A stretch of 64,000 nt of DNA from Candidatus Omnitrophota bacterium (GCA_016180575.1 JACPAY010000007.1:1457-65456), one strand, 5' to 3'; counted from the stretch's first letter, positions 3,861 through 56,974 are shown. A program made the numbers and translations. Notes: generated by a model not told the origin, from the letters alone.

Positions 3861-3917
3861 ATGAGACAGGGGACAAGGGACAGGGGACATGTCTCCCGTC
3901 TCCTGTCTCATGTCTCC
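3861..3917 (+). repeat. R1 palindromic element, intergenic copy (rplN-rplX spacer)
   Basis: ATGAGACAGGGGACAAGGGACAGGGGAC / ATGTCTCCCGTCTCCTGTCTCATGTCTCC; arms built from 7-nt units GGGGACA and TGTCTCC. Confidence 0.85.
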
Positions 3918-3927
3918 AGAGGGGCGG

Positions 3928-4239
3928 ATGGCTCGCATTAAGAAGGGAGATACGGTCACGGTCTTGAGCGGCAAGGACCGCGGCAAATCAGGCAAGGTGC
4001 TGCAGGTGTGGCCGGCGCGCGGCCGGGCCCTGGTGGAGCACGTCAACCTCGTGACCCACTTTGAGCGGCGCAGCCAGCAGCACCAAGCCGGCGGCGTGGT
4101 CCAGCGGGAGGGCGCCGTGGCGCTCTCGAAGCTCTCGCTGACCTGCCCGAAGTGCCGGCGGCCGTCCCGGCCGGGCTGGACGGCCTCGGTTCAGGGAGCG
4201 AAGCAGCGGGTGTGCCGCCGCTGCCAGGAACCGATCTGA
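3928..4239 (+). CDS. rplX: 50S ribosomal protein L24
   Basis: ATG 3928 gives MARIKKGDTVTVLSGKDRGKSGKV (KOW motif). The track ORF starts 39 nt earlier at an ATG inside repeat R1. C-terminal CPKC…CRRC. Confidence 0.93.
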   Translation: MARIKKGDTVTVLSGKDRGKSGKVLQVWPARGRALVEHVNLVTHFERRSQQHQAGGVVQREGAVALSKLSLTCPKCRRPSRPGWTASVQGAKQRVCRRCQEPI

Positions 4240-4835
4240 TGCCCGCGCCCGCGCCGACGACGAAAGCCCGGCCCGCCCCGCGCCTGCTGGAGCGCTACCG
4301 CAAGGAGCTGGCGCCGGCGCTGGCCAAGCAGTTCCATCACCGCAACCCCATGGCGGCGGCGCGCCTGGAGAAGATCGTGCTCAACATGGGCTGCGGCGAG
4401 GCCGCCCACGACGCGAAGATCCTCGAGGCGGCGCAGCGGGACCTGGGCCTGATCGCCGGCCAGCGGCCGGTGGTGACGCGGGCGAAGAAGGCGATCTCCA
4501 ACTTCAAGATCAAGGAACAGGATCCGGTCGGCTGCAAGGTGACGCTGCGCCGGGCGCGGATGTACGAGTTCCTGGATCGCCTCGTCCACATCGCGCTGCC
4601 GCGGATCCGGGACTTCCGGGGGCTGAACCCGAACAGCCTGGATCAAGGCGGCAGCTACAGCTTCGGGATCAAGGAGCACATGATTTTCCCCGAGATCCCG
4701 CCGGACCAGGTGCCGTACACGCTGGGGATGGACATTGTGTTGGTCACACGCGCCGCGACGCGCGAGGAGGCGTTCGCCCTGCTGAAGGGGTTCGGCCTGC
4801 CGTTCGCGGTGAAAGCCTCGAAGGAAGCGGAGTGA
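4239..4835 (+). CDS. rplE: 50S ribosomal protein L5
   Basis: In-frame ATG 4239 overlapping the rplX stop; L5 blocks [14 protein letters not shown] and [22 protein letters not shown]. Confidence 0.96.
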
Positions 4836-4836
4836 G

Positions 4837-5022: not shown

Positions 5023-5023
5023 A

Positions 5024-5452: not shown

Positions 5453-5459
5453 CCAGTCT

Positions 5460-5553
5460 TGTGTAATGCGTAACGCGGAATGCGTAATGGGAAGATGCCA
5501 GACAGAGATTTCGGCGTTTCCATTACGCATTACGCATTCCACATTACGCAAAC
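5460..5553 (+). repeat. R5 imperfect palindrome built from TAATGCG/CGCATTA units (rpsH-rplF spacer)
   Basis: TGTAATGCGTAACGCGGAATGCGTAATGGGAA … TTTCCATTACGCATTACGCATTCCACATTACGCA; loop of about 23 nt. Confidence 0.75.
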
Positions 5554-5572
5554 GATGGGTGGTTGACGCGTG

Positions 5573-6136
5573 ATGTCCCGCATCGGACGCGCCCCCATCC
5601 CGATGCCGACCGGCGTCAAGGTGACGCAGGAGGGTCCGCGGCTGCTCGTCGAGGGGCCGAAGGGGAAGCTGTCGCTCGCCATCCCCGCGGCGATCTCGGT
5701 CAGCGTGGACGGCCAGACGGTCCGGGTGCAGCGCGCCGGCGACGAGGCGCGCCAGCGGGCGCTGCACGGGCTGACCCGCGCCCTGGTCGCCAACATGGTC
5801 CACGGCGTCTCCGCCGGGTTTTCGAAAGAGCTGGAGATCGCGGGCGTCGGCTACCGGGCGCAGCTGCAGGGCAAACAGCTCTCGCTCCAGGTCGGGTTCT
5901 CGCATCCGGTCGTGGTCCCCATCCCCGAGGGGCTGACCGTGGAGGTGCCCAAGCCCACCTCGGTGGTGGTCAAGGGGTCCGACAAGCACCTCGTCGGGCA
6001 GTTCGCGGCCAACATCCGCCGCATCGCCCCGCCGGAGCCGTATAAGGGCAAGGGGATCAAGTACGCGGGAGAGATCATCCGCCGGAAAGCGGGGAAGGCC
6101 GCGACCGGCGCGGGCGCCAAGGCGCAAGCGGGATGA
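5573..6136 (+). CDS. rplF: 50S ribosomal protein L6
   Basis: Track ORF 5570..6136; ATG at 5573 gives [12 protein letters not shown]… typical L6. Confidence 0.95.
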
Positions 6137-6207
6137 TCCTTCGACTCGCTTCGCTCGCTCAGGATCATGGTGAGCAAGGCTCCGGCAGGAGCCGCGTCGA
6201 ACCATGA
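6132..6207 (+). repeat. R2 gene-junction element (rplF stop to rplR start)
   Basis: GATGATCCTTCGACTCGCTTCGCTCGCTCAGGATCATGGTGAGCAAG-GGCTCCGGCAGGAGCC-GCGTCGAACCATGA. Confidence 0.9.
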
Positions 6208-8933: not shown

Positions 8934-8935
8934 CC

Positions 8936-11090: not shown

Positions 11091-11091
11091 C

Positions 11092-11122
11092 GGTATCAGA
11101 TACCAGGCTGGTATCTGATACC
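11092..11122 (+). promoter_or_regulatory. 13-bp perfect hairpin / tandem palindromes between rpsM and rpsK
   Basis: GGTATCAGATACC-AGGCT-GGTATCTGATACC; each arm is itself palindromic; followed by AAGGAGG and the rpsK ATG. Confidence 0.45.
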
Positions 11123-11138
11123 GAAAAGGAGGAGAGGG

Positions 11139-15077: not shown

Positions 15078-16177
15078 GCCGCCGCGTGACGTTCATTCCG
15101 GGGGACGGGATCGGGCCGGAGGTGGCCTGGGCGGCCCGGCGCTGCCTCGAGGCAACCGGGGTGGCGTTCCAGTGGGACGAGCGGATCGCCGGCGAGGCGG
15201 CCATCGCGCGGTTTCAGACGCCGCTGCCGGAGGAGACGCTCCAGTCCATCCGCGATAACCGCGTGGCGATCAAGGGCCCCATCACGACCCCCATCGGCAA
15301 GGGATTCCGGTCCGTGAACGTCGCGCTGCGCAAGCAGCTGAACCTGTTCGCCTGCGTGCGGCCCTGCCGGACGTACGCGGGCGTGCGCGCGCCGGTCCCC
15401 CAGGTCGATCTCATCATCGTCCGCGAGAACACCGAAGACCTCTACGCGGGCATCGAGTTCGCCGCGGGCGAGCCCCGCACCCGCCAGCTGATCGCCCAGC
15501 TGCGGGACTGGTCCCAGCAGGCCATCCAGGAGGACGCGGCGATCAGCATCAAGCCCATCTCCGCGGCCGCGACGGAGCGCATCGTGCGGTTCGCCTGCGA
15601 GTACGCGCTCGCGCGCGGCCGGAAAAAGGTGACGGCGGTCCACAAAGCGAATATCATGAAATGCACGGACGGCCTCTTCATGGAGACCGCCCGCCGCGTG
15701 GCGGGGGCCTACGCCGGGCGCCTCGCCTTCGAGGACCGGCTGGTGGACGCCACATGCATGCAGCTCCTCCTCCGGCCCGGGGACTTCGACGTGCTCGTGC
15801 TGCCGAACCTCTACGGCGACATCCTCTCGGACCTGTGCGCCGGCCTCATCGGGGGGCTCGGCATCGCGCCGGGGGCCAACATCGGGGAGGAGGCGGCGGT
15901 GTTCGAGGCGGTCCACGGCAGCGCCCCGAAGTACGCCGGGCAGAACAAGGTGAACCCGACCGCGATGATCCTCTCCGGCGTCATGCTGCTGCGCCACATC
16001 GGGGAGCCCGAGGCGGCGGACCGGCTGGACGGGGCGGTCGCGGCGGTGCTGCGGGAGGGCCGCGACGTGACGTACGACCTGAAGCCGGACCGCAACGACC
16101 CGACCGCGGTCGGCACGAAGGAGATGGCCGCCGCGATCATCGAGCGGATGAAAACGGTCAAGGTGAGAGTCCCATGA
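15074..16177 (+). CDS. icd: isocitrate/isopropylmalate dehydrogenase family, NAD-IDH-like
   Basis: In-frame ATG 15074 overlapping the previous stop; VTFIPGDGIGPEV…, VALRKQLNLFACVRPC…, IVRENTEDLYAG blocks. Confidence 0.85.
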   Translation: MSRRVTFIPGDGIGPEVAWAARRCLEATGVAFQWDERIAGEAAIARFQTPLPEETLQSIRDNRVAIKGPITTPIGKGFRSVNVALRKQLNLFACVRPCRTYAGVRAPVPQVDLIIVRENTEDLYAGIEFAAGEPRTRQLIAQLRDWSQQAIQEDAAISIKPISAAATERIVRFACEYALARGRKKVTAVHKANIMKCTDGLFMETARRVAGAYAGRLAFEDRLVDATCMQLLLRPGDFDVLVLPNLYGDILSDLCAGLIGGLGIAPGANIGEEAAVFEAVHGSAPKYAGQNKVNPTAMILSGVMLLRHIGEPEAADRLDGAVAAVLREGRDVTYDLKPDRNDPTAVGTKEMAAAIIERMKTVKVRVP

Positions 16178-16187
16178 TAGAGCGTTT

Positions 16188-16286
16188 GGCCGCGGGTCCT
16201 GCCGCGCCGCCACCCCGCCGGCTGTCCTCGGCCTCGTCGGCCTGCGGGCAGGCGGCGGGGGCCCCGGCTCCGCGTCACCCGCGGCC
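16188..16286 (+). repeat. R3 99-nt GC-rich element (icd-lipA junction)
   Basis: Termini GGCCGCGGGT…ACCCGCGGCC; near-identical to the copies at 25220 and 56515 (reverse complement). Confidence 0.9.
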
Positions 16287-17111
16287 GTCTGCGAGAGCGC
16301 GCGCTGTCCCAACTTGCACGAGTGCTGGTCCAAGCGGCAGCTCACGTTCATGATCCTGGGCGAGCGCTGCACCCGCAGCTGCCGCTTCTGCGCGGTGGCG
16401 CACGGCCGGCCCGAGCCGGTCGAGGCGGATGAGCCCTGGCGCGTGGCGGAGGCGGTGCGGCGGCTCGGCCTCGTGCACGTCGTCATCACGTCGGTGGCGC
16501 GGGACGACCTCCGGGATGAGGGCGCCGGCCACTTCATCGAGGTCATCCGGACGGTTCGCCGCGAGAACCCAGGCGTGACGGTGGAGATTCTTATCCCGGA
16601 CTTCCACGGCCGGGAGGAGCTGGTGCAGGCGGTCGTCGGGGACGGGCGGCCCGACGTCTTCGCCCACAACGTGGAAACGGTCGAGCGGCTCTCCGGCCTC
16701 CTGCGGCCGCAGGCGGCCTACCGACGGTCGCTGCGCGTGCTCGGCCTCGCCGCCTCGCAGGGCGGGGAGTGCCTGATCAAGTCCGGCCTGATGCTGGGCC
16801 TGGGCGAAACCGCTGAGGAGATGGAACGGACCTTCGAAGACCTGCGCGCGGCCGGCGCCACCCACCTGACCATCGGGCAGTACCTCCGGCCGGACGCCGA
16901 CCACCTGCCGGTGCAGGAGTACGTCAGCCCGGAGCGGTTCGCGGAGTACGAGGCGCTCGCCTACCGCGCGGGGTTTGCGTGGGTGCGGTCCGGCCCATTC
17001 GTCCGCAGCTCCTACCACGCCGCCGAAGGCGTACACATGAGGAGTCCGGTTCCCGCTTTCCTATCGGAGAACTCTGGGAAACCGGGAACCGGACCCGGGA
17101 CTATCGCATGA
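16287..17111 (+). CDS. lipA: lipoyl synthase; initiation codon unresolved, C-terminus runs into repeat R4
   Basis: Track ORF starts at TTG 16314, but the in-frame conserved CESARCPNLHEC (CX4CX5C) begins at 16290. Radical-SAM CTRSCRFC motif present. Frame is open back to 16167 with no ATG/GTG/TTG. Confidence 0.8.
   Translation, partial: VCESARCPNLHECWSKRQLTFMILGERCTRSCRFCAVAHGRPEPVEADEPWRVAEAVRRLGLVHVVITSVARDDLRDEGAGHFIEVIRTVRRENPGVTVEILIPDFHGREELVQAVVGDGRPDVFAHNVETVERLSGLLRPQAAYRRSLRVLGLAASQGGECLIKSGLMLGLGETAEEMERTFEDLRAAGATHLTIGQYLRPDADHLPVQEYVSPERFAEYEALAYRAGFAWVRSGPFVRSSYHAAEGVHMRSPVPAFLSENSGKPGTGPGTIA
17037..17106 (+). repeat. R4 70-nt hairpin element (lipA 3' end / aminotransferase start)
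   Basis: ATGAGGAGTCCGGTTCCCGCTTTCCTATCGGAGAACTCTGGGAAACCGGGAACCGGACCCGGGACTATCG; 12-bp perfect stem GTCCGGTTCCCG/CGGGAACCGGAC. Confidence 0.9.
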
Positions 17112-18385
17112 CACGCCGCATGCCGCTCTCCATCCGCCGCATCCAGCGGCAGCTGCGCGAGCGGACCCGGAGGGAACTGGCGCGGAGCAACCGCCGGCTG
17201 TTCCACGAGGCGAACCGGCTCAAGCGGCTGCCTCTCTACCTCTTCACCATCCTGGATGAGCTCAAGGCCCAAGCGGCGGCGCGCGGGACCGATGTGATCG
17301 ACTTGGGGATGGGCAACCCGGACCTGCCGCCGCCGGCGCACGTCGTCGCCGAGCTGGTCAAGCAGGCGAGGAAGCCGGCGAACCACCGCTACTCCCGGAA
17401 GGGCGGGGATGTCGAGCAGAAGCTGCTGGAGACCATCGCGGCCTGGTACCACCGCAAGTTCCGCGTCTCGCTGGACCCGGGCGCCGAGGTGCTGCCGCTC
17501 ATCGGGTCGAAGGAGGGCATCTCGCACCTCTCGCTGGCATTCCTCAACCACGACGATATCGCGCTCGTGCCGAACCCGACCTACCCGGTGCACTTCAACG
17601 GGGTGGTCATGGCGGGCGGCATCCTGTACAACCTGCCGATCCACGCCGAGACGCACTGGCTGCCGGACCTGCGCGCCATCCCCAAGAGCGTCCTGCGCCA
17701 GTCCAAGCTGCTCTTCCTGAGCTACCCCCATAACCCGACGACGGCGGTGGCGGACCTGCGCTTCTTCAGGGAGGCGGTGGCGTGGGCCCGGGCGCACCGG
17801 ATCATGATCATCCATGACTTCGCGTACTCCGACATCACCTTCGATGGGCTCCGGGCGCCGAGCATCCTCGAGGTCCCGGGGGCGAAAGAGGTGTGCGTGG
17901 AGTTCCACACGCTCTCGAAGTCCTACAGCCTGCCGGGGCTGCGCCTCGGCTTCGGGGTGGGGAACCGGGACGTCCTGGCCTCCCTCGCGAAGACGAAGAG
18001 CTACATCGACTTCGGCATCTTCCGGGCCGTGCAGTGGGCCGCCATCGCCGCCCTGGCCGGCCCCCAGCAGTACGTCCACCGCGCGGTCGCCACGTATGCG
18101 CGGCGGCGCGACCTGGTCGTGGACGGGCTCGCGGGGATCGGCTGGCACGTCCCGAAGCCGAAAGGCACCTTCTACATCTGGACGAAGATCCCGCTCAAGT
18201 TCAACGCCCTGACCTCGCTTGAGTTCGCCACGCTCCTCATGCAGGAAGCCGGCGTGGTCGTCTCCCCCGGCAGCGGGTTCGGGGAGTACGGGGAAGGGTT
18301 TGTCCGCTTCGCGCTCGTCGAGCCCGAGCCCAGATTGCGGGAGGCGATCAAGCGCATCGCGAGGGTCCTGCAGATGGAAGATTGA
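17108..18385 (+). CDS. class I/II aminotransferase (DapL/alanine aminotransferase-like)
   Basis: In-frame ATG 17108 in track ORF 16979..18385; DLGMGNPD…, SYPHNPT…, LSKSYSLPGLRLGF motifs. Confidence 0.8.
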   Translation: MTRRMPLSIRRIQRQLRERTRRELARSNRRLFHEANRLKRLPLYLFTILDELKAQAAARGTDVIDLGMGNPDLPPPAHVVAELVKQARKPANHRYSRKGGDVEQKLLETIAAWYHRKFRVSLDPGAEVLPLIGSKEGISHLSLAFLNHDDIALVPNPTYPVHFNGVVMAGGILYNLPIHAETHWLPDLRAIPKSVLRQSKLLFLSYPHNPTTAVADLRFFREAVAWARAHRIMIIHDFAYSDITFDGLRAPSILEVPGAKEVCVEFHTLSKSYSLPGLRLGFGVGNRDVLASLAKTKSYIDFGIFRAVQWAAIAALAGPQQYVHRAVATYARRRDLVVDGLAGIGWHVPKPKGTFYIWTKIPLKFNALTSLEFATLLMQEAGVVVSPGSGFGEYGEGFVRFALVEPEPRLREAIKRIARVLQMED

Positions 18386-18412
18386 GCGCGGCCTGCGAGA
18401 GGCTGCTGAGCC

Positions 18413-19591
18413 ATGAACGGACGACGGATCCTCTTGATGCACATCACCACCAGCTCCGGCCACCATCGCGCCAGCTGCGCCATCGAGCGGACCGTCAGGG
18501 CGCTCGACCCCTCCGCGACGATCGTCAACCTCGACGCCTTCCAGTTCACCAGCCGCTTCGTCCGCTGGGCGATCACCCGCACCTACACCTCGCTGATCCA
18601 CCACCAACCGGACGTCTGGGAGTACCTCTACGACAACCCCTCGGTCCACCGCCGGCTGCAGTATTTCCGGGCGCTGCTCCACCGCTACCACGCCGCCAAG
18701 CTCCAGCAGGTCATGGAGACGGTGCGGCCCGACGCCATCGCCTGCACCCAGGCCTACCCTTGCGGGGTGGTCGCGGATTTCAAAAAGCAGCACCGCCTGC
18801 GCGTGCCGCTCATCGGCGTGCTGACGGACTACGCGCCGCACCTCTATTGGTTCCATGACACCGTCGACGTGTACGTCGTCCCCTCCGAGCAGGTGAAGCG
18901 GCGCTTCGCCACCCGGGGGGTCGACCCGGCCCGGGTGCGGGCGCTCGGCATCCCCATCGACCCCCGCTTCCATGACCCCGTCGACCGGCAGGCGGCCGCC
19001 AGGCGATTCGGCCTGAACCCCGAGCAGCCGGTGCTCCTCATCATGGGCGGCGGCAGCGGGTTCGGCCAGATGCGGGAGATCGTCCTCAGCCTCGATACGC
19101 TGCCGCATCCCTGCCAGCTCGTCGTCCTCGCCGGGACCAACCGTCCGCTCCTCGCCTGGCTGCAGGGCCAGCGGTTCCGGCACCGAGTGCTGGCCGTCGG
19201 CTACACCGAGGAGGTGCCCGAGCTCATGTCCGTCGCCACGCTGCTCGTCAGCAAGCCGGGCGGCCTGACGACCTCCGAAGCGCTGGCCAAGCACCTGCCG
19301 CTCGTCATCGTCAATCCCATCCCGGGCCAGGAAGCATACAATGCCCGCTTCCTGCTGTCCCAGGGGGCGGCGGTCCAGGCCGCGTCGGCCGCGGCGGTCC
19401 GGCAGCCCGTGCGCGATCTCCTCGACGACCCGGAACAGCTCGAGACGCTGAAGCGGCGGAACGCGGAGCTCGCCCACCCCCGCGCGGCGCCCGCCATCGC
19501 GCGCCTGCTGTGCGAGCTCGCCGACCAGTACCGGGACCGCCCGCGGCCCGAAGCGGACCGCCCGCGGCCCACCGCGGAGGTGCTCTCCTGA
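18413..19591 (+). CDS. GT28-family glycosyltransferase (monogalactosyl/glucosyl-diacylglycerol synthase-like)
   Basis: Track ORF; N-terminal ILLMHITTSSGHHRAS… and C-terminal LVSKPGGLTTSEALAKHLPLVIVNPIPGQE resemble MGDG-synthase/UgtP family. Confidence 0.7.
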   Translation: MNGRRILLMHITTSSGHHRASCAIERTVRALDPSATIVNLDAFQFTSRFVRWAITRTYTSLIHHQPDVWEYLYDNPSVHRRLQYFRALLHRYHAAKLQQVMETVRPDAIACTQAYPCGVVADFKKQHRLRVPLIGVLTDYAPHLYWFHDTVDVYVVPSEQVKRRFATRGVDPARVRALGIPIDPRFHDPVDRQAAARRFGLNPEQPVLLIMGGGSGFGQMREIVLSLDTLPHPCQLVVLAGTNRPLLAWLQGQRFRHRVLAVGYTEEVPELMSVATLLVSKPGGLTTSEALAKHLPLVIVNPIPGQEAYNARFLLSQGAAVQAASAAAVRQPVRDLLDDPEQLETLKRRNAELAHPRAAPAIARLLCELADQYRDRPRPEADRPRPTAEVLS

Positions 19592-20427
19592 GCGCGAAGT
19601 ACGCCGCCTATCGAACGGCGCAATGGCTCAGCCAGCGCCTGCCGTCGCCGGCGGCATTCGGCTGCGCCGAGCGCGTGGCCGACCTGTGGATCCGGGGCGC
19701 CCGCCGCGAGCGCGCCGCGATCCGCGCCAACCTCGCCCTGGCGCTGGAGGCTGCCGCGCCGGAGGCCACACTCGTCCGGGAGGTGTTCCGCAACTTCGGC
19801 CGCTACCTGGTGGAGTTCTTCACCATCCATCAGACCCCGAAGCCCGCGGTGTCGGTCGAGGGCTACGACCATCTCCTGAACGCCAGGCGCCGGGGAAGCG
19901 GCGCCGTGCTCCTGACCGGCCACCTCGGCAACTGGGAGGTCGGGGCGGTCCTCCTGCGCCGCATGGGCCTGCCCGTCGCGGTGATCGCCCTGCCGCATGA
20001 CGATGCCGGGACGAACCGGCTCTTCAACCGCCAACGGCACCGCTGCGGCCTCGAGGTGATCCCGGTGGGCGAGGACGCGGCGCAGCGCAGCCTGCAGCGG
20101 CTCCGGGAAGGGTGCCTCCTCGGCGTCCTCGGCGACCGGGAGTTCGGCGGGCACGGCGTGCCGGTCCGCATCTTCCGCCGCGAGCTCCTCCTGCCGAGCG
20201 GCCCGGCCATCCTGAGCCTCCGGGCCCGCGTGCCGGTCATCCCCACGTTCCTCATCCGGGAAGGCCCCTGGCGCTTCCGCCTGTGCCTGGAGCCGGCCAT
20301 CCAGCCCGACGGGCAGGAGGGGGCCGCGTTGGTCCCTCGATTGACCCAGCGCTACGCGCAGGTCCTCGAGCGATACGTGCGGCGGACGCCGACGCAGTGG
20401 CTGCTCTTCGAGCCGGCCATGGGATGA
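19510..20427 (+). CDS. lysophospholipid/lipid A acyltransferase family protein (start uncertain)
   Basis: Track ORF; LLTGHLGNWEV (HX4D/E acyltransferase motif). GTG 19510 overlaps the upstream gene by 82 nt; CTG 19588 is an alternative start. Confidence 0.7.
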   Translation: MRARRPVPGPPAARSGPPAAHRGGALLSAKYAAYRTAQWLSQRLPSPAAFGCAERVADLWIRGARRERAAIRANLALALEAAAPEATLVREVFRNFGRYLVEFFTIHQTPKPAVSVEGYDHLLNARRRGSGAVLLTGHLGNWEVGAVLLRRMGLPVAVIALPHDDAGTNRLFNRQRHRCGLEVIPVGEDAAQRSLQRLREGCLLGVLGDREFGGHGVPVRIFRRELLLPSGPAILSLRARVPVIPTFLIREGPWRFRLCLEPAIQPDGQEGAALVPRLTQRYAQVLERYVRRTPTQWLLFEPAMG

Positions 20428-20948
20428 GGGCGCTCGTCATCAGCCACCTGCGCAACCAGGGGAAGGGCTGCGCCCTGCGGACCGGCTTCATGCATGCGCT
20501 GCGGGAGCACTTCGAGGGCATCGTCACCCTGGACAGCGACGGGCAGCACGACCCGGCCGACATCCCGCAGCTCATCGCCGAAGGCGAGCGGCAGCACGCG
20601 AGCCTGGTGCTCGGCAACCGGATGGCGAACGGCGCGCGGATGCCCACGGCGAGGCGGTGGACCAACGCCGCCATGTCGCGCCTCGTCTCGACGCGCATCC
20701 GGCAGCCCATCCCGGATTCCCAGTGCGGCTTCCGGTTCATCCACAAGGAACTGTTGGACACCCTCCCCCTGCGGGCGAAGCGGTTCGAAGGCGAGACCGA
20801 GCTGGTCATCTGGGCGGCTGTGCGGCGCTGGAAGATCATCTCCGTGCCGGTGCGCAGCACCGACCAGCGCCATCCCAGCCACATCCGCCCCGTGCGGGAC
20901 GCGGTCCGGTTCCTGGGCGTGCTGATCCGGTCGCTGGCCTGGCGATGA
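20424..20948 (+). CDS. glycosyltransferase family 2, N-terminally truncated (possible remnant)
   Basis: ATG 20424 overlapping the previous stop. NQGKGCALRTGF and LDSDGQHDP motifs present, but the usual N-terminal ~80 aa are absent in every frame upstream. Confidence 0.55.
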   Translation: MRALVISHLRNQGKGCALRTGFMHALREHFEGIVTLDSDGQHDPADIPQLIAEGERQHASLVLGNRMANGARMPTARRWTNAAMSRLVSTRIRQPIPDSQCGFRFIHKELLDTLPLRAKRFEGETELVIWAAVRRWKIISVPVRSTDQRHPSHIRPVRDAVRFLGVLIRSLAWR

Positions 20949-20984
20949 TCCAATGGTGAGCGAGTGAAACGAGTCGAACCATGA
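20944..20984 (+). repeat. R2 gene-junction element, short variant (GT2 stop to pcm start)
   Basis: GATGATCC-AATGGTGAGCGAG-TGAAA-CGAGTCGAACCATGA. Confidence 0.7.
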
Positions 20985-21619
20985 GCTTCGAGGAGCAGCG
21001 TGAGCAGATGGTCCTGGAGCAGCTCCTGGCTCGGGGGCTGACGGACGAACGGCTGCTGGCTGCCTTCCGCAAGGTCCCGCGCCACCGCTTCGTCCCGCCG
21101 GAGCTCGAGGCGCAAGCGTATACGGACCATCCGCTGCCGATCGGCGCCGGCCAGACGATCAGCCAGCCCTACATGGTGGCCCTGATGACCAGCCGCCTCG
21201 TCCTGCAGGGCCATGAGCGCGTCCTGGAAATCGGCGCGGGCTCCGGCTACCAGGCGGCCATCCTCGCGGAGCTGGCGCTGGAGGTCTTCTCCGTGGAGCG
21301 GATCCCGGAGCTGTTGCGCGCCGCGGCCGAGCGTCTGGGCGCCCTCGGGTACCTCAACGTCCACTTCACGGCCGGCAACGGATCGCTCGGATGGGCTGCG
21401 CATGCGCCCTACGACGCCATCGTGGTCACCGCAGCCGCCCCGGAGATCCCGGAACCGCTCCTCGCGCAACTGGCGGACGGCGGCACGATGGTCCTGCCCA
21501 TTGGCCCCCCCGAGGGCCAGATGCTCGTGGAGGCGCGCAAGCGGCATGGGACCGTCACGCAGCGCGAGATCGCCAGCTGCGTCTTCGTGCCGCTCCTCGG
21601 CCGATACGGCTGGACATGA
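20981..21619 (+). CDS. pcm: protein-L-isoaspartate O-methyltransferase
   Basis: Track ORF; ISQPYMVALMT…, VLEIGAGSGYQAAILAEL SAM motif; start ATG lies inside the short R2 repeat. Confidence 0.92.
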   Translation: MSFEEQREQMVLEQLLARGLTDERLLAAFRKVPRHRFVPPELEAQAYTDHPLPIGAGQTISQPYMVALMTSRLVLQGHERVLEIGAGSGYQAAILAELALEVFSVERIPELLRAAAERLGALGYLNVHFTAGNGSLGWAAHAPYDAIVVTAAAPEIPEPLLAQLADGGTMVLPIGPPEGQMLVEARKRHGTVTQREIASCVFVPLLGRYGWT

Positions 21620-25219: not shown

Positions 25220-25348
25220 GGCCGCGGGTCCTGCCGCGCCGCCACCCCGCCGGCTGTCCTCGGCCTGGTCGGCCTGCGGGCAGGCGGCGGGGGCCCCGGC
25301 TCCCCCGGCCCGCTCCGGCGTGCCGGGGCGGGCGCGTCACCCGCGGCC
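25220..25348 (+). repeat. R3 element, 129-nt variant with nested 30-nt insert
   Basis: Same termini; extra CCCCGGCCCGCTCCGGCGTGCCGGGGCGGG segment (itself a CCCCGGC/GCCGGGG hairpin). Confidence 0.9.
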
Positions 25349-34073: not shown

Positions 34074-34100
34074 GGAGGGGAAAACCACGTTTTCCCCTCC
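34074..34100 (+). other. perfect 12-bp stem / 3-nt loop hairpin in the untranslated tract upstream of tRNA-Gly
   Basis: GGAGGGGAAAAC-CAC-GTTTTCCCCTCC read directly; no U-tract follows. Confidence 0.5.
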
Positions 34101-34134
34101 TATGGAGGACCCCTCGGATTTCTATGGGTCCGAC

Positions 34135-42647: not shown

Positions 42648-42664
42648 TGGTCGTGTCTCAATTT

Positions 42665-42746
42665 GGCGGGTCCTGCCGCGCCGCCACCCCGTCGGCTGTC
42701 CTCGGCCTTCGCCTGCGGGCAGGCGACGGGGTCCCCGGCTCTGCGT
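42665..42746 (+). repeat. R3 element, degenerate copy lacking intact termini
   Basis: GGCGGGTCCTGCCGCGCCGCCACCCCGTCGGCTGTCCTCGGCCTTCGCCTGCGGGCAGGCGACGGGGTCCCCGGCTCTGCGT. Confidence 0.8.
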
Positions 42747-50399: not shown

Positions 50400-53219
50400 A
50401 TGTCTGCGCTCCCCCCCCAGTACAACCCCAAGGACGTCGAGGAAGCCCGCTACGCGTGGTGGGAATCCCAGGGCTTCTTCCGCGCCGACCCGGACCCCAA
50501 GCGGAAGCCCTACACCATCGTGATCCCGCCGCCCAACGTGACGGGCATCCTCCACATGGGCCACGCGCTCAACAACACCATCCAGGACATCCTCATCCGG
50601 TTTGCGCGCATGCAGGGGTTCAACGCCCTCTGGGTCCCGGGCACCGACCATGCCGGGATCGCCACCCAAAACGTCGTGGAGAAGGCGCTGGCCAAGGAAG
50701 GGAAGCGCCGGCAGGACCTGGGGCGCGAGGCGTTCCTCAAGCGCGTCTGGGAGTGGAAGGAGCAGTACGGCAACACGATCCTGTACCAGCTCAAGCGCCT
50801 CGGCGCCTCCTGCGACTGGCGGCGGACCCGGTTCACGATGGACGAGGGGCTCTCCGAAGCGGTCCTCGAGGTGTTCGTCCGGCTCTATGAGAAGGGGCTG
50901 ATCTACCGCGGGAACTACATCATCAACTGGTGCCCCCGGTGCCAGACCGCGCTCGCCGACGAGGAGGCGCCGCGCACCGAGACCCAGGGCAAGCTCTACC
51001 ACATCAAATACCCCATTTTGAGACAGGGGACAGGGGACAGGGGACAGGGGAAGACCACACCTGTCTCCCGTCCCATGTCTCCTGTCTCAGCTTTCATCGA
51101 GGTGGCCACGACCCGGCCGGAGACGATGCTGGGCGACACCGCCGTCGCCGTCCACCCGAAGGACAAGCGGTACAAAACGCTCATCGGAAAGCACGCCATC
51201 CTCCCGCTCGTGAACCGGAAGCTCGTCATCATCGCGGACGAGGCGGTGGACCGGGAGTTCGGCACCGGGGCGGTCAAGGTGACGCCGGCCCACGACCCGG
51301 TGGACTTCCAGCTCGGGAAGAAGCACAAGCTCGAGTTCATCAACGTGATGACCGACGACGCGAAGATGACCAATGTGCCGAAGCCCTACGAGGGGCTCGA
51401 CCGGCTCGACTGCCGCAGCAAGCTCATCGTGGACCTCGAGCAGCAGGGGTTCCTCGGCCGGATCGACGAGCACGTGCACAACGTCGGCCACTGCTACCGC
51501 TGCCACACGGCGGTGGAGCCGCGCCTCTCCCCGCAGTGGTTCGTGAAGATGAAGCCGCTCGCCGAGCCGGCGATCAAGGCGGTCAAGCAAGGGACGATTA
51601 AGTTCGTCCCGGCGCGGTGGACCAAGGTGTACCTCAACTGGATGGAGAACATCCAGGACTGGTGCATCAGCCGCCAGATCTGGTGGGGCCACCGGCTGCC
51701 CGTCTACTACTGCGAAAGCTGCCGGCGGAGACAGGAGACAGGAGACAGGAGACAAGCAAAGGCCCAACGTGTCTCCCGTCCCATGTCCCATGTCTCAGAA
51801 CCCGGTGTCATTGTTTCAAAGACGCGGCCGGAGCGGTGCCCAACCTGCGGCGGGACCGAGCTGGCGCAGGACGAGGACGTGCTGGACACGTGGTTCTCCT
51901 CCTGGCTGTGGCCGTTCTCGACGCTCGGCTGGCCGAAGAAGACTAAAGACCTCGCCTACTTCTATCCGACCGACACGCTCGTCACCGCGCAGGAGATCAT
52001 CTTCTTCTGGGTCGCCCGGATGGTCATGGCCGGCTACTTCTGCATGAAGCGGCCGCCGTTCACCACGGTCTCCATCCACGGCACGGTGCGCGACATCACC
52101 GGCAAGAAGATGTCGAAATCGCTCGGCAACATCATCGACCCGCTCGAGATGATCGGCCGCTACGGCACCGACGCGCTGCGCTACACGCTGGTGACCGCCA
52201 CCGCCATCGGCCAGGACATCTTCCTCTCGGAGGAGCGGTTCGCCGCCGGCCGCAACTTCGCCAACAAGCTCTGGAACGCCACCCGCTTCGTGCTCGCGCA
52301 GGACGGAATCGAAAAGTACCGGGTACTTCCCAAAGCGGGAAAAGTACCCGGTACTTTTTCAGTAGCGGACCGGTGGATCCTCTCGCGGCTCCAGCAGACC
52401 ACCGCCCGCGTCACGAAGTCGCTCGAGGCGTCCCTGTTCAATGACGCGGCCAGCGCGCTCTACGGCTTCCTCTGGCACGACTTCTGCGACTGGTACGTGG
52501 AGATCGCCAAGCACGTGCCGGCCGAGCAGCAGCCCGCCACCCGCGCGATCCTGCGGCACGTCCTTGAGCAGGCGCTGCGGCTGCTCCACCCGGTCATGCC
52601 CTTCGTGACCGAGGAGCTGTGGCAGCATCTGAGACAGGGAACCACCAAGCCACCTGTCTCTCGTCTCATGTCTCATGTCCCAATTTCGATTATGAAGGCG
52701 GAGTGGCCGAAGGTGGAGAAGCGTCTCATCGACCGCGAGGCGGAGCGGCTCTTCGAGCGGCTCCAGGCGGTCATCACCGCCATCCGGACCACGCGGTCTG
52801 AGCTCAACGTCCCGGTGGAGAGCCGGCCGCCGGTGCATCTGGCATCGCCGCAGGCCGAGGTCCGGATGTTTTTCGAGATCCACCGCCCGCTCCTCCAGCA
52901 GCTGGCCGCGCTGGGCGACATCAGCGTCGAGGCCAAGCGGCAGGCGGTGCGGCACGCGGCGGCCATGGTGGTGGACGGGGTCGAAGTCCTGATGCCGCTG
53001 GAAGGGCTCATCGACCCGGCGAAGGAGCGCGCGCGGCTCCAGCAGCGGCTCGACGACCTCACGCGGCAGAGGGCCCAGGCGGAGGCCAGGCTCAAGGACC
53101 GGCAGTTCACGACCAAAGCGCCCGCCGAGGTCGTGGAGCAGACCAAGACCCGGCGCGCCGAGCTCCAGGACACCGCCAAGAAGGTGTCCGAGCACCTGGC
53201 CGTGCTCCAGGGGATGTGA
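50400..53219 (+). CDS. valS: valine--tRNA ligase carrying four in-frame repeat insertions
   Basis: Track ORF, 939 aa; HIGH-type PPNVTGILHMGH, KMSKS, TTRPETMLGD, C-terminal coiled coil. Confidence 0.96.
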   Translation: MSALPPQYNPKDVEEARYAWWESQGFFRADPDPKRKPYTIVIPPPNVTGILHMGHALNNTIQDILIRFARMQGFNALWVPGTDHAGIATQNVVEKALAKEGKRRQDLGREAFLKRVWEWKEQYGNTILYQLKRLGASCDWRRTRFTMDEGLSEAVLEVFVRLYEKGLIYRGNYIINWCPRCQTALADEEAPRTETQGKLYHIKYPILRQGTGDRGQGKTTPVSRPMSPVSAFIEVATTRPETMLGDTAVAVHPKDKRYKTLIGKHAILPLVNRKLVIIADEAVDREFGTGAVKVTPAHDPVDFQLGKKHKLEFINVMTDDAKMTNVPKPYEGLDRLDCRSKLIVDLEQQGFLGRIDEHVHNVGHCYRCHTAVEPRLSPQWFVKMKPLAEPAIKAVKQGTIKFVPARWTKVYLNWMENIQDWCISRQIWWGHRLPVYYCESCRRRQETGDRRQAKAQRVSRPMSHVSEPGVIVSKTRPERCPTCGGTELAQDEDVLDTWFSSWLWPFSTLGWPKKTKDLAYFYPTDTLVTAQEIIFFWVARMVMAGYFCMKRPPFTTVSIHGTVRDITGKKMSKSLGNIIDPLEMIGRYGTDALRYTLVTATAIGQDIFLSEERFAAGRNFANKLWNATRFVLAQDGIEKYRVLPKAGKVPGTFSVADRWILSRLQQTTARVTKSLEASLFNDAASALYGFLWHDFCDWYVEIAKHVPAEQQPATRAILRHVLEQALRLLHPVMPFVTEELWQHLRQGTTKPPVSRLMSHVPISIMKAEWPKVEKRLIDREAERLFERLQAVITAIRTTRSELNVPVESRPPVHLASPQAEVRMFFEIHRPLLQQLAALGDISVEAKRQAVRHAAAMVVDGVEVLMPLEGLIDPAKERARLQQRLDDLTRQRAQAEARLKDRQFTTKAPAEVVEQTKTRRAELQDTAKKVSEHLAVLQGM
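51019..51089 (+). repeat. R1 palindromic element, in frame in valS (copy a)
   Basis: TGAGACAGGGGACAGGGGACAGGGGACAGGGGA-AGACCACAC-CTGTCTCCCGTCCCATGTCTCCTGTCTCA; translated LRQGTGDRGQGKTTPVSRPMSPVS. Confidence 0.9.
51727..51796 (+). repeat. R1 palindromic element, in frame in valS (copy b)
   Basis: GAGACAGGAGACAGGAGACAGGAGACA-AGCAAAGGCCCAAC-GTGTCTCCCGTCCCATGTCCCATGTCTCA; translated RQETGDRRQAKAQRVSRPMSHVS. Confidence 0.9.
52311..52360 (+). repeat. R6 palindrome in frame in valS
   Basis: GAAAAGTACCGGGTACTT-13 nt-AAGTACCCGGTACTTTTTC, about an 18-bp stem; translated EKYRVLPKAGKVPGTF. Confidence 0.75.
52630..52680 (+). repeat. R1 palindromic element, short copy in frame in valS (copy c)
   Basis: TGAGACAGGGA-ACCACCAAGCCAC-CTGTCTCTCGTCTCATGTCTCATGTCC; translated LRQGTTKPPVSRLMSHVP. 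Confidence 0.8.
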
Positions 53220-54100
53220 TGTCCGGCCTCAGCCGGGAGGCGGTCCTATCCCTCATCCGTCTCGCGCTGCGCGAGGATCAGGCCGGCCGCGACATCACCT
53301 CAACGGCCGTGCTGCCGGCAACCGCCCGCGCCCGGGCGCGGCTTATCGCGCGGGCGCCGGGCATCCTGGCCGGCGGCCAGGCGGCCGGGTGGGTGTTCCG
53401 CGCGGTGGACCGTCGGGTGCGATACCGCGTCAGACTGCATGACGGGACGGCGACGCGGCCAGGACAGGTGGTCGCGAACCTGGACGGGCCGGCTCGCTCC
53501 ATCTTCGCGGCGGAGCGGACCGCGCTGAACCTGCTGGGCCATCTCTCCGGCATCGCGACGCTCACCCACGCTTATGCCCGACGGGTCCGCGGCACCCGGG
53601 CCAAGGTCTACGACACCCGCAAGACGCTGCCGGGGCTGCGGGCCCTTGAAAAGCACGCGGTCCGCGCAGGCGGGGGGCGCAGCCACCGCGGCAGCCTGGC
53701 CGAGGCGGTCCTCATCAAGACGAACCATCTGAAGGCGCTGGGACAGGGGACAGGGGACAGGGGACAGGGGATCCAAAACGCCATTAAGCGGGCGAAACGC
53801 CGGTTCCCTGGCAAGTTCGTTGAAGTCGAAGTGAGAACGGTGCGCCAATTTCAATCGGCACTGACTGCGCAACCTGACGCCATTTTACTCGACAACATGT
53901 CTCTCCATGACGTCCGACGCGCCGTTCACCTGTCCCATGTCTCGCGTCCCTTGTCTCAAAAGCGGCCTCTGTTGGAGGTTTCAGGAGGCATTACCCTCAA
54001 AAATGTCCGGGCCTACGCCCGCGCGGGCGCGGACCGCATCTCCATCGGCCGGCTGACCCACTCGGCGCCTGCGCTGGACGTCTCGCTGGAAATCGTATGA
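53216..54100 (+). CDS. nadC: nicotinate-nucleotide diphosphorylase (carboxylating) carrying both R1 repeat arms in frame
   Basis: Track ORF; AERTALNLLGHLSGIAT, YDTRKTLPGLR, LIKTNH, EVEV, LLDNM, EVSGGI blocks. Confidence 0.92.
   Translation: MMSGLSREAVLSLIRLALREDQAGRDITSTAVLPATARARARLIARAPGILAGGQAAGWVFRAVDRRVRYRVRLHDGTATRPGQVVANLDGPARSIFAAERTALNLLGHLSGIATLTHAYARRVRGTRAKVYDTRKTLPGLRALEKHAVRAGGGRSHRGSLAEAVLIKTNHLKALGQGTGDRGQGIQNAIKRAKRRFPGKFVEVEVRTVRQFQSALTAQPDAILLDNMSLHDVRRAVHLSHVSRPLSQKRPLLEVSGGITLKNVRAYARAGADRISIGRLTHSAPALDVSLEIV
53741..53770 (+). repeat. R1 left arm alone, in frame in nadC
   Basis: GGACAGGGGACAGGGGACAGGGGACAGGGG; translated GQGTGDRGQG. Confidence 0.85.
53927..53958 (+). 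repeat. R1 right arm alone, in frame in nadC
   Basis: CACCTGTCCCATGTCTCGCGTCCCTTGTCTCA; translated HLSHVSRPLSQ. Confidence 0.8.
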
Positions 54101-56112
54101 TGGACCGTTTCGAGCTCGTCACCGACCTCACGCCGAAGGGCGACCAGCCGGAGGCGATCGAGACACTCACCCAGGGGCTCCGGGAAGGGAAGAAGTTCCA
54201 GACGCTCCTCGGCGTGACCGGCTCGGGCAAGACGTACACGGTCGCGCACGCCATCGCCAACCTCAACAAGCCCACGCTCGTCATCTCGCACAACAAGACG
54301 CTCGCCGCCCAGCTCTACAGCGAGTTCAAGAGCCTCTTCCCGCACAACGCCGTGGAGTACTTCGTGAGCTACTACGACTACTACCAGCCGGAGGCGTACG
54401 TGCCGCAGACCGACACGTACATCGAGAAGGACGCCTCCATCAACGACGACCTGGACCGGCTGCGGCTCTCCGCGACCAGCTCGCTCCTCACCCGTCGCGA
54501 CGTCCTCATCGTGGCGACCGTCTCCTGCATCTACAGCCTCGGCGACCCGGAGGAGTACAAGGAGCAGATGGTGTGGCTCGCGGCGGGCAAGCCCGCCCGG
54601 CGCGACGAGGTGCTCTCGTGGCTCGTGGGCATCCACTACAGCCGCAACGACGTGGACTTCCGGCGCGGCACCTTCCGCGCGCGGGGCGACGTCCTCGACA
54701 TCTTCCCGGCCTACCGGCAGACCGCCTACCGGGTCGAGCTGGCGGACGGGCGCATCGGCCGCATCCGGGAGATCGACCCGCTGACCGGCGACGCGCTGGC
54801 GGAACTCGAGCAGATCGCCATCTACCCGGCCAAGCACTTCGTGACCAACAAGGAGCGCATCGAGGCCGCCCACCAGGGCATCCTCCAGGAGATGGTGGAG
54901 TGCGTGCGCAACTTCCAGGCGCAGGGCCGGATCCTGGAGGCGCAGCGCCTGGAGTCGCGCACCAAGTACGACCTCGAGATGCTGAAGGAGCTGGGCTACT
55001 GCCACGGCGTCGAGAACTACGCGCGCCACCTCTCCGGCCGCGCCCCCGGCTCGCGGCCCAACTGCCTCATCGACTACTTCCCCAAGGACTACCTCGTGGT
55101 CATCGACGAGTCGCACGCCACCGTGCCCCAGATCCGCGGGATGTACGAGGGCGATCGCGCCAGGAAGGAGACGCTGGTCGAGTACGGCTTCCGCCTCCCC
55201 TCGGCGCTCGACAACCGCCCGCAGACGTTCGAGGAGTTCGAGACGCTGCTCAACCAGGTGGTCTTCATCTCGGCCACACCCGGCCCCTATGAATGGAAGC
55301 GCTGCGGCGGCCGGGTGGTCGAGCAGGTCATCCGCCCGACCGGCCTCGTGGACCCCGCCATCACCGTCAAGCCGACCGAAGGGCAGATCGATGACCTCAT
55401 CGCGCAGGTCAGGGGCCGCGCCGGGCGCAAGGAGCGGGTCCTCGTGACGACGCTGACGAAGCGGCTCGCGGAGGACCTGAGCCGGTATCTTGGCGAGGCG
55501 GGGCTGCGGGTCAAGTACCTCCACTCGGAGATCGACGCCATCGAGCGGGTCGAGATCCTGCGCGACCTGCGCAAGGGGGCGTTCGACTGCCTCGTCGGGA
55601 TCAACCTGCTGCGGGAGGGGCTCGACCTGCCCGAGGTGTCGCTCGTCGCCGTCCTCGATGCCGACAAGGAGGGGTTCCTGCGCTCGGCCACGTCGCTCAT
55701 CCAGGTCGCTGGGCGGGCCGCCCGCAACGTGAACGGCGAGGTCATCCTGTACGCGGACCACCAGACCGGCGCGATGCGCCAGATGCTCGAGGAGACCACC
55801 CGCCGCCGGGCGAGGCAGCTTGAGTACAACACGCGCCACCGCATCACCCCCACCACCATCGTCAAGGCGATCCGGGAGGGCATCGAGGTCATGCGGCAGG
55901 CGGAGGCGTTCGCCATCCAGCAGTCCGGCCAGTCGCCGGATGAGCACAACATCCGGCAGGTCCTCTCGGACCTTGAGGACGAGATGCTCGTCTGCGCCAA
56001 GGGGCTGCAGTTTGAGCGCGCCGCCGAGCTGCGCGATGAGATCGTGGCGCTCCGGGACAAATACCACTTGAGCGATGAGCCGAGCAAGCGTCCAGCGCGA
56101 TCCCGAGCTTGA
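54097..56112 (+). CDS. uvrB: excinuclease ABC subunit B
   Basis: Track ORF; GVTGSGKTYT, YFVSYYDYYQPEAY, C-terminal UVR motif (FERAAELRDEI). Confidence 0.97.
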   Translation: MMDRFELVTDLTPKGDQPEAIETLTQGLREGKKFQTLLGVTGSGKTYTVAHAIANLNKPTLVISHNKTLAAQLYSEFKSLFPHNAVEYFVSYYDYYQPEAYVPQTDTYIEKDASINDDLDRLRLSATSSLLTRRDVLIVATVSCIYSLGDPEEYKEQMVWLAAGKPARRDEVLSWLVGIHYSRNDVDFRRGTFRARGDVLDIFPAYRQTAYRVELADGRIGRIREIDPLTGDALAELEQIAIYPAKHFVTNKERIEAAHQGILQEMVECVRNFQAQGRILEAQRLESRTKYDLEMLKELGYCHGVENYARHLSGRAPGSRPNCLIDYFPKDYLVVIDESHATVPQIRGMYEGDRARKETLVEYGFRLPSALDNRPQTFEEFETLLNQVVFISATPGPYEWKRCGGRVVEQVIRPTGLVDPAITVKPTEGQIDDLIAQVRGRAGRKERVLVTTLTKRLAEDLSRYLGEAGLRVKYLHSEIDAIERVEILRDLRKGAFDCLVGINLLREGLDLPEVSLVAVLDADKEGFLRSATSLIQVAGRAARNVNGEVILYADHQTGAMRQMLEETTRRRARQLEYNTRHRITPTTIVKAIREGIEVMRQAEAFAIQQSGQSPDEHNIRQVLSDLEDEMLVCAKGLQFERAAELRDEIVALRDKYHLSDEPSKRPARSRA

Positions 56113-56974
56113 GGCTAGGCTCTCCCGGCACATCGGCGGACGGCCGGTTCACGCGTTCCAACAGGTCGGCTCGACGATGGAGGTGGCGCACCAGCTGGCG
56201 GCTGAGGGCGCGGCGGAGGGCACGCTGGTCGTCGCCGCGCGCCAGGAGCAGGGGAGAGGCCGTCAGGGGCGGACGTGGGCGTCCCCGGAGGGCGGGGCCT
56301 ACTGCTCGCTCATCCTCCGGCCCGCGCGGCCTCCGTCCGAAACCCCGCAGCTCTCGCTGGTCGCCGGACTGGCCGCGGCTGAAGCCATCCGGGACATGGC
56401 CTGCCTCTACCCCGCGATCCGCTGGCCCAACGACCTCCTGCTGAGGGAGAAGAAGGTGGCCGGCATCCTCACTGAACAAAAAGTGCCAGGCTGCTCCGTC
56501 GAACATCCCCGTATGGCCGCGGGTGACGCGGAGCCGGGGCCCCCGCCGCCTGCCCGCAGGCCGAGGAGGCCGAGGACAGCCGACGGGGTGGCGGCGCGGC
56601 AGGACCCGCGGCCCGGCGTGGTCATCATCGGCATCGGGATCAACGTGGCCACCAATCCGGCGCAGCTGCCGGAGGGCTCGACCTCGCTGGCGGCCGAGGG
56701 GGCCCCGCACGTGAGCCGCGAGGAGCTGCTCGCCGGCTGGTGCCGCCGCTTCAGCGCCTGGTACGAGGTGTGGACGCGCCAGGGCTTCGGCCCCATCCGC
56801 GAGGCGCTGCGCCCCTGGATCGGCCTCTTCGGCCACCCGGTGCAGCTCACCGCGGGCTCCGAGCAGCTCCAAGGCACCGCCCAGGATCTCGACGAGTCCG
56901 GCCGCCTCCTTGTGCGCCTCGACTCCGGTGTTCAGCGCGCGTTCGAGATGGGGGAGGTCGCGCTGCTCAGATGA
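56075..56974 (+). CDS. birA: biotin--[acetyl-CoA-carboxylase] ligase (no HTH domain) with in-frame R3 insertion
   Basis: Track ORF; QEQGRGRQGRTWASP motif, IRWPNDLLL…KKVAGIL, IGIGINV. Start ATG 56075 overlaps uvrB by 38 nt. Confidence 0.88.
   Translation: MSRASVQRDPELEARLSRHIGGRPVHAFQQVGSTMEVAHQLAAEGAAEGTLVVAARQEQGRGRQGRTWASPEGGAYCSLILRPARPPSETPQLSLVAGLAAAEAIRDMACLYPAIRWPNDLLLREKKVAGILTEQKVPGCSVEHPRMAAGDAEPGPPPPARRPRRPRTADGVAARQDPRPGVVIIGIGINVATNPAQLPEGSTSLAAEGAPHVSREELLAGWCRRFSAWYEVWTRQGFGPIREALRPWIGLFGHPVQLTAGSEQLQGTAQDLDESGRLLVRLDSGVQRAFEMGEVALLR
56515..56613 (-). repeat. R3 99-nt element, inverted orientation, in frame inside birA
   Basis: Reverse complement matches the 16188 copy; exactly 99 nt between GGCCGCGGGT and ACCCGCGGCC. 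Confidence 0.9.

Follow-up and report, generated by a model that had tools for sequence, protein, structure and literature searches.

Short palindromic repeats of bacterial genomes, such as those of the REP (repetitive extragenic palindromic), BIME (bacterial interspersed mosaic element), ERIC (enterobacterial repetitive intergenic consensus) and MITE (miniature inverted-repeat transposable element) types, normally lie between genes. Bacterial MITEs with 3-bp TNA target duplications are of the IS5-family IS1031 group or PIF/Harbinger-like, and the STRR (short tandemly repeated repetitive) sequences of cyanobacteria are heptanucleotide tandem repeats. Mycobacterial interspersed repetitive units (MIRUs) are reportedly intercistronic, with a small open reading frame (ORF) that overlaps stop and start codons, and the small dispersed repeats (SDRs) of the cyanobacterium Nostoc, 21-27 nt in length, are said to occur in genes, in hairpins, in heptamer arrays and nested in one another. 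TAACTGA heptanucleotide repeats have been described in Beggiatoaceae (PMC4679880). The Rickettsia palindromic elements (RPEs) comprise several palindromic families, many of them in-frame in housekeeping genes, according to the summary of Ogata et al. (2000) given in a review of MITEs (PMC10969869). Here we analyse a 64-kb stretch of a Candidatus Omnitrophota metagenome-assembled genome (MAG; GCA_016180575.1, JACPAY010000007.1:1457-65456), referred to below as the window, in which small hairpin-forming repeats are scattered among and inside core genes. We propose, with moderate confidence, that they represent several families of mobile DNA, short and non-autonomous and of the MITE, REPIN (REP doublet forming hairpin) or RPE type, of which selection has kept gene-sparing copies. 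Our search of the literature found no account of hairpin repeats lying in frame in Omnitrophota genes.

The window has a GC content of 69% and nearly all of its genes are on the plus strand; they include a ribosomal protein cluster, icd-lipA-dapL, accC-pfk-gmhA-hldC, hom-thrC, leuA-valS-nadC-uvrB-birA-coaX and groES-groEL-groES. The nearest ValS proteins all come from Candidatus Omnitrophica/Omnitrophota MAGs, the window BirA is 100% identical to the NCBI protein MBI2104643.1 of an Omnitrophota MAG, and synteny is kept in seven related contigs. We count 20 elements (copies or fragments) in about seven hairpin-forming families: six of A (four hairpins and two single-arm arrays), four of B, three each of C and D, one of E, two of F and one of G. 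This is close to the approximately 19 copies or fragments of at least six families proposed by a first-pass annotation made from the sequence alone, which also placed at least seven copies inside ORFs that stay open (four in valS, two in nadC and one in birA) and others on the stop or start codons at rplF/rplR, accC/pfk, GT2/pcm, both ends of lipA, gmhA/hldC and hom/thrC. All of these placements hold. Two further copies are each read as an end of LipA, so that nine of the 20 form part of an ORF, which is at odds with the extragenic location of REP, BIME and REPIN repeats. The lengths of 99, 99 and 129 nt that the annotation gave for the intact copies of one family (its R3) were likewise recovered, the 129-nt copy being a B element with a nested 30-nt hairpin.

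The families are recovered both by self-BLASTN of the window, with copy-to-copy E-values of 1e-5 to 1e-45, and by a repeat finder. Each copy has a strong hairpin fold, and a hairpin scan detected 13 strong hairpins in the window compared with 0-3 in ten trinucleotide shuffles. Tandem Repeats Finder reported period-7 arrays of 2.4-4.6 copies at all of the A and E arms. Profile searches of the window with nhmmer added no further copies; D3 was located by pattern matching. Copies at unlinked loci are near-identical (B1 and B4, 98% over 99 nt; B1 and B2, 99% over 85 nt; C1 and C2, 98.6% over 70 nt; D1 and D2, 100% over 46 nt), whereas between the host genes and their nearest relatives identity is only about 80%. 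In the families that reside in ORFs (A, B and G), no frame has more than one stop codon and most have none; in E and F, which are purely intergenic, two to four of the six frames contain stops. The ends of the elements are TCCTTCGAC and GTCGAACCA for D, GGCCGCGGGT and ACCCGCGGCC for B, and TGAGACAG and CTGTCTCA for A, as terminal inverted repeats, with GGAGTCCGG as a further end sequence.

Seven copies are in frame, and the host ORF is open through every one of them. The valS gene contains three family A heptamer hairpins on the plus strand, namely A2 (51019-51091, residues 207-231, site 1), A3 (51727-51798, residues 443-467, site 2, between two CxxC pairs) and A4 (52630-52682, residues 744-761, site 5, with a shortened left arm), as well as the single G element (52312-52358, residues ~638-653, site 3), a double palindrome with two copies of AAGTACC[G/C]GGTACTT around an AAAGCGG centre. 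The three A copies match exactly gaps in the alignment with Thermus thermophilus ValS (1GAX), and G falls in another gap. The A copies are read in one common frame and encode related peptides (..RQGTGDRGQG..VSRPMS.V..). Among the related contigs, L001 (ValS 79% identical) is empty at all sites, L002 (81% identical) has family A at the same three sites and L003 (76% identical) has at those three sites another heptamer hairpin, GGGCTCR..YGAGCCC. At site 3 of L003 the AGGTGTC[A/T]GACACCT arms differ from those of G in the window and the AAAGCGG centre is shared. More widely, approximately 70 related ValS proteins carry inserts at five hot-spot loops, drawn from a small recurring repertoire of palindrome-encoded peptides; the inserts are dispersed across the tree and the sites, and many orthologues are empty. 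An attempt to assess the surface exposure of the ValS inserts with AlphaFold2 (24 sequences, mean pLDDT 62) was set aside, the inserts being predicted, like much of the core, as low-confidence coil.

The birA gene carries B4 (56515-56613, minus strand, residues 148-180), a reversed B copy with 98% complementarity to B1, which adds 33 codons between two conserved BirA strands and leaves the frame open. Among 25 aligned BirA proteins the B peptide is present in that of the window only, many of the 25 are empty, and birA of L003 has a 21-codon element of yet another family at the exact position of B4. Just upstream of B4 (56480-56514; alignment columns 245-262) birA encodes KVPGCSVEHPR. Since the peptides of relatives at this place (KVPGT.. 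or KVSDTF..) fit the double palindromes GTGCCAGGCAC or GGTGTCAGACACC, B4 seems to have landed in or beside the remnant of an older element. In nadC, the A5 array (53739-53771, plus strand) is made of (GGGACAG)4.6, of the left-arm type only, and lies in one loop; A6 (53914-53957, plus strand), an array of the right-arm type (CTGTCCC-like), lies in a second loop ~140 nt downstream. Because some relatives are empty, one has the same family and others have different families at the same sites, the elements of the window are insertions rather than ancestral protein segments or artefacts. A scan of metagenomes with a 20-nt B core gave 20 matches, all of them chance 20-mers without a B element.

The other location of these elements is the junction between genes of an operon, and here family D is the most informative. 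D1 (6134-6207, rplF|rplR), D2 (30659-30735, accC|pfk) and the diverged D3 (20923-20984, GT2|pcm), all on the plus strand, fill the entire spacer between the stop of one gene and the start of the next, in the arrangement TGA-TCCTTCGAC ... GTCGAACCA-TGA. D1 and D2 contain a mini-ORF (24 and 25 residues, respectively) bounded by ATGA at both ends, with its ATG on the upstream stop and its TGA on the downstream ATG, thus overlapping the rplF stop and the rplR ATG in the case of D1. In D3 the GT2 stop is inside the element and the pcm ATG is within its terminal CCATGA. All three copies have terminal inverted repeats (T..TTCGAC) and a TGA on both sides. At rplF|rplR, the related contigs L149 and L150 show a bare ATGA overlap (GG-ATGA-GCC), that is, an empty site, and in L151 the same ATGA harbours a 136-nt element that is unrelated to D; its terminal inverted repeats are perfect and, again, a TGA stands on both sides. 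D is the only family of the window with both a target-site duplication and an empty site in relatives; the L151 element is flanked in the same way. Such flanks are the signature of transposition with a 3-bp TGA duplication, and an element with A as its last base restores the ATG of the downstream gene. TNA triplets are rare at 69% GC except as stop codons, which would explain why such families are found on stop and start codons.

Positions 4361-4391 of a 61% GC phage contig (L152; IMGVR_UViG_3300022661_003878), just upstream of the large terminase gene, match the 31-nt core of D, GATCCTTCGACTCGCTTCGCTCGCTCAGGAT, at 100% identity; in the phage this stretch forms one arm of a longer palindrome. 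Palindromes of this kind encode '..LRFAQDD..'-type motifs in many spurious hypothetical proteins. Scans of phage sequences gave no match to the C core, and a looser D pattern gave two further matches, both by chance; a literature search on peptide motifs for the D core returned nothing relevant.

Family C occupies similar positions. Its copies start with a TGA, which serves as the stop of gmhA in C2 (32339-32415, plus strand, gmhA|hldC) and of hom in C3 (45210-45253, plus strand, hom|thrC, left arm missing), and which is out of frame in lipA, where C1 (17038-17111, plus strand, lipA|dapL, starting TGAGGAG) is read as an in-frame 24-residue C-terminal tail of LipA whose last TGA overlaps the dapL ATG. 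A second TGA follows the element in C1 and C2. At the site of C3, L001 has a complete C and L003, L145 and L148 have none. The other end of lipA holds B1 (16188-16286, plus strand), a GC-rich hairpin of 99 nt whose terminal inverted repeats are 10 nt long (GGCCGCGGGT/ACCCGCGGCC); it follows the icd stop and precedes the first motif conserved in LipA.

Two of these genes have unusual starts. From the preceding stop to the VCESARCPN motif (~16290), lipA (16161-16320) has no in-frame ATG, GTG or TTG; the ATG at 16174, in an ATGA overlap with the icd stop, is in a different frame from lipA, and B1 lies in between. The gene may start at a CTG, be damaged or contain an indel from the assembly; a programmed frameshift at B1 was considered and rejected, as there is no slippery site before the hairpin. 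In hldC, C2 puts a CTG where the ATG of an ATGA overlap with gmhA would have been, and an in-frame ATG at 32328, which reads through the whole of C2, would give HldC a 28-residue N-terminal extension.

The explanation that we favour for both locations would be as follows. The elements would spread as DNA, by insertion, and only the copies that do not break genes would survive purifying selection. One class of survivors consists of the stop-free in-gene copies, with lengths in multiples of three, in permissive and probably surface-exposed loops of ValS, NadC and BirA, where they are read in frame as extra loop peptides. The other class would be found at operon junctions, the target of D, and probably of C, being the TGA of an ATGA overlap: duplication of this TGA together with an element ending in A would rebuild both the upstream stop and the downstream ATG, and would leave a mini-ORF bridging the two genes. 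For D, we infer the transposition step from flanking repeats and empty sites that are directly observed. The presence of different families in the same loops and junctions would result mainly from repeated insertion and a strong survivorship filter, to which homogenisation between copies may contribute.

The arms of A, of E and of many of the elements of relatives are arrays of a 7-nt unit. Three such units make 21 nt and thus encode the same seven-residue peptide repeat in any frame; neither GGGACAG nor its complement contains a stop codon, and the arrays of family A and of its kin in sister genomes are stop-free in all but one of the three forward frames and in most of the reverse ones. Such arrays can change length through slippage. 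In valS of L146, a (GAGTTCC)n / (GAAACCC)n family is present at sites 1 and 5 in opposite orientations, with approximately 88% identity over 74 nt; it keeps its own asymmetric, non-complementary arms. Only one of its strands has a good fold, in which each unit forms about two G.U pairs. The comparison of the two copies shows a discrete element inserted both ways and not a local expansion. Between the window and L002, the site 1 hairpin has approximately four differences across both arms, and the flanking third codon positions are only 66% identical. Either constraint or homogenisation to a family consensus would account for this conservation beyond neutral sites.

In a GRGACAG pattern scan of a genome collection, the figures of which refer to the matches listed, arrays were found in many phyla (Okeania, Trichodesmium and Microcystis; Planctomycetota, Acidobacteriota, Chloroflexota and Verrucomicrobiota), with no Omnitrophota among them, and 22 of the 124 arrays examined (about one in six) form inverted-array hairpins, for example in L056, L062, L019 and L111. 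The architecture is therefore widespread, and it is the in-frame residence in essential genes that is unusual.

Heptamer hairpins of 83-93 nt are also found 8-18 nt before the valS start in four relatives, with the units GCAGAAG in L003 (9893-9982), AGCACAC in L145 (9905-9992), AGCGTNN in L146 (9908-9990) and TCAGAAG in L148 (9901-9993). In several of these four the left arm is read as the C-terminal tail of LeuA/CimA; the hairpin is missing at this place in the window, L001, L002 and L147. The guaB|guaA spacer of the window contains a direct array at 62210-62234 (CTCGCAC, 3.6 copies) with no inverted partner.

These features can be joined into a more specific reading, which we regard as possible but on the whole doubtful. 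The heptamer-array hairpins would be a distinct, clade-wide and self-propagating class, not derived from a known insertion sequence (IS), each family having arms made of its own 7-nt unit; in at least one of them only one strand would fold, whichever way the element is inserted, which would suggest an intermediate of single-stranded DNA or of RNA; copies within a genome would be kept alike by conversion; and the same permissive loops of ValS, BirA and NadC would have been taken over repeatedly across a large Omnitrophota clade, as a regular source of new protein loop sequence.

Several observations weigh against mobility and have to be set beside its main rival, according to which the heptamer hairpins (A, E and their counterparts in relatives) were not transposed at all: slippage would have formed them, templated repair would have made their arms symmetrical and gene conversion would have homogenised the unit, shared sites being old inherited arrays. 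Neither A nor B shows a target-site duplication, the flanks of C are ambiguous, its TGA being possibly the element's own rather than a duplication, and no transposase or other mobilising gene was seen in the 64-kb window. The different families found in exactly the same loops could stem from turnover in place rather than from new insertions: orthologous sites do carry different units, at valS sites 1, 2 and 5 as well as before valS, where the relatedness of GCAGAAG in L003 to TCAGAAG in L148 hints at evolution in place. In nadC, the first-pass reading needs a correction: the arrays add residues with respect to distant NadC proteins, but compared with the close relatives L002 and L003 they replace loops of about equal length, which fits sequence conversion better than simple insertion. 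The isolated one-arm arrays of nadC (A5) and of the guaB|guaA spacer, and the GRGACAG arrays of other phyla, with their minority of hairpins among the matches listed, are also what turnover in place would be expected to leave. For family A this is a substantial rival. As a general account we consider it unlikely, given that the L146 family keeps a specific pair of non-complementary arms in both orientations at unrelated loci of one genome, that many close orthologues are cleanly empty, that peptides of one family turn up again at other sites in far-removed branches of the tree, and that families B, C and D are left unexplained.

A second rival takes the elements for domesticated modules, either mRNA hairpins acting in processing, stability, attenuation or translational coupling, or useful peptides of surface loops. 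The exact coupling of the D mini-ORF to both of its neighbours would suit such a role, as would the inner hairpin, which differs on both strands between D1 (TCCCGCC..GGCGGGA) and D2 (GCTCC..GGAGC), the stop codon followed by GGAG at the start of C, the arms shared by the window and L002 that are conserved above the neutral rate, and the hairpin that four relatives keep directly upstream of the valS start. On the other hand, the advantage of sense-strand folding has no consistent direction over all of the elements and some copies fold far better on the antisense strand, which argues against a general role in mRNA. Copies occur in both orientations, close relatives do without the elements, and some insertions look harmful, leaving lipA without a canonical in-frame start and turning the hldC ATG into CTG. 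At gathering thresholds, Rfam recognised two tRNAs only in the window, and no Rfam family corresponds to the elements. A purely functional reading is thus less likely than that of mobile elements, and we judge it distinctly improbable.

We give almost no weight to the idea that these protein segments are ancestral, or that they stem from faulty MAG assembly or from chimerism: although the source is a MAG and related contigs tend to break at such repeats (L004 ends at the pre-valS array), the segments are missing from unrelated lineages (the Thermus and Pyrococcus orthologues) and from several close relatives, the frames are open through every in-gene copy, and the same elements at the same codons in independent assemblies (L002; L003 and L004) rule out chimeras. 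The first-pass annotation had itself named these two outcomes, together with an absence of copies elsewhere, as fatal to its proposal, and further copies were found both in the window and in relatives.

The remaining copies lie outside genes. In the ribosomal protein cluster, A1 (3861-3918, plus strand), a heptamer-array hairpin of (GRGACAG)n followed by (CTGTCYC)n, occupies the rplN|rplX spacer, which is 8 nt long or replaced by an overlap in L149 and L151. E1 (5459-5551), a 93-nt hairpin with arms of AATGCGT-type heptamers, lies in the rpsH|rplF spacer, where L149 and L151 have other hairpins and L150 has none. F1 (11091-11123), a double palindrome with two copies of GGTATC[A/T]GATACC, is found in the rpsM|rpsK spacer and is missing there in L150, and F2 (34071-34103) is a perfect 15+3+15 hairpin 32 nt upstream of a tRNA-Gly gene. 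B2 (25220-25348, plus strand) lies between the gene of an M16 peptidase and a MEMO-like gene; its nested 30-nt GC hairpin, CCCGGCCCGCTCCGGCGTGCCGGGGCGGGC (25304-25333), has no second copy in the window. Finally, B3 (42664-42746, plus strand) is a diverged B copy, ~92% identical, upstream of gpsA.

Several neighbouring features were noted in passing. Between groES2 and guaB, a lower-GC island (60343-60902) contains two overlapping small ORFs (60376-60648 and 60645-60902), the second with a borderline match to a CopG antitoxin, preceded by a palindromic operator-like sequence, TTGACACTTGTATATACAAGTGTTACA; it is missing here in L003 and looks like an inserted toxin-antitoxin cassette. The groES-groEL-groES trio (57856-60232), with two Cpn10 genes ~70% identical over 132 nt, is present in all of the relatives examined, and a hairpin and T-run terminator is found at 60185-60232. 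In L146, the region between birA and coaX (17899-21590) contains HicAB and Phd/ParE toxin-antitoxin pairs and an IS1595-family transposase, for which no link to the hairpin elements was seen. As regards contig ends, L004 starts exactly at the pre-valS array, L002 stops ~20 nt before the birA hot spot, and most contigs that bear the cluster of ribosomal protein genes measure only 1-7 kb; assemblies are probably fragmented by the repeats.

Palindromic elements in frame have mainly been treated as a peculiarity of Rickettsia. They are dense here in the core genes of an uncultivated high-GC lineage, and with approximately 70 related ValS proteins they would offer a second, much larger natural system in which to follow how selfish hairpin DNA enters proteins and whether new loops arise from it. 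The ATGA/TGA insertions would show how small repeats can settle on stop and start codons without breaking operons. In practice, start-codon calling is misled at lipA, hldC and thrC, and non-homologous blocks are added to phylogenomic marker genes.

How do these elements compare with described systems? With REP, BIME and REPIN repeats they share abundant short imperfect palindromes, and the 99-nt B hairpin is about the size of a REPIN doublet; they differ in that nearly half of the copies lie in ORFs and in that no RAYT gene was seen in the window. STRR and TAACTGA repeats likewise have a 7-nt unit, short arrays and many copies per genome, and GRGACAG arrays themselves occur in cyanobacteria. 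Those repeats, however, are direct and almost all intergenic, and TAACTGA contains stops, whereas in family A the arrays form inverted arms and all but one of the six copies are in ORFs. The Nostoc SDRs, which are 21-27 nt long and cyanobacterial, would be comparable as very small mobile repeats found in genes, in hairpins, in heptamer arrays and nested in one another.

The junction elements call for other comparisons. D and the L151 element resemble MITEs in their terminal inverted repeats, their multiple copies, their lack of a transposase and their TGA flanks at a site that is empty in relatives. They depart from TNA MITEs in that no parent IS with matching ends lies in the window and in that the target of D is the TGA of an ATGA overlap, of which both genes survive; A and B, moreover, have no duplication. 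Like MIRUs, D1 and D2 are intercistronic in operons and contain a small ORF that overlaps the upstream stop and the downstream start. They come from an unrelated lineage and have an unrelated sequence, each D site holds one unit and not a tandem array of variable number, and the inverted repeats and duplicated TGA point to transposition. The first-pass annotation had suggested an RPE-like, multi-family system; this stands for the in-frame elements absent from some orthologues, whereas the elements on stop and start codons are better called MITE-like ATGA/TGA insertions with MIRU-like mini-ORFs.

For the in-frame copies, RPEs, as they are summarised in the MITE review, are the nearest likeness: in both cases short palindromes reside in frame in unrelated housekeeping genes that stay open, encode peptides at tolerant positions and are missing in orthologues. 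The elements of the window are shorter (47-129 nt, compared with approximately 100-150 nt in that summary), one major family is made of tandem 7-nt units, and other families bridge gene junctions with a duplicated TGA. Given a host that belongs to the Omnitrophota, with 69% GC, and not to Rickettsia, homology with RPEs is unlikely. The likeness would be a functional one, and we take the elements of the window as an analogue of RPEs rather than a member of that group.

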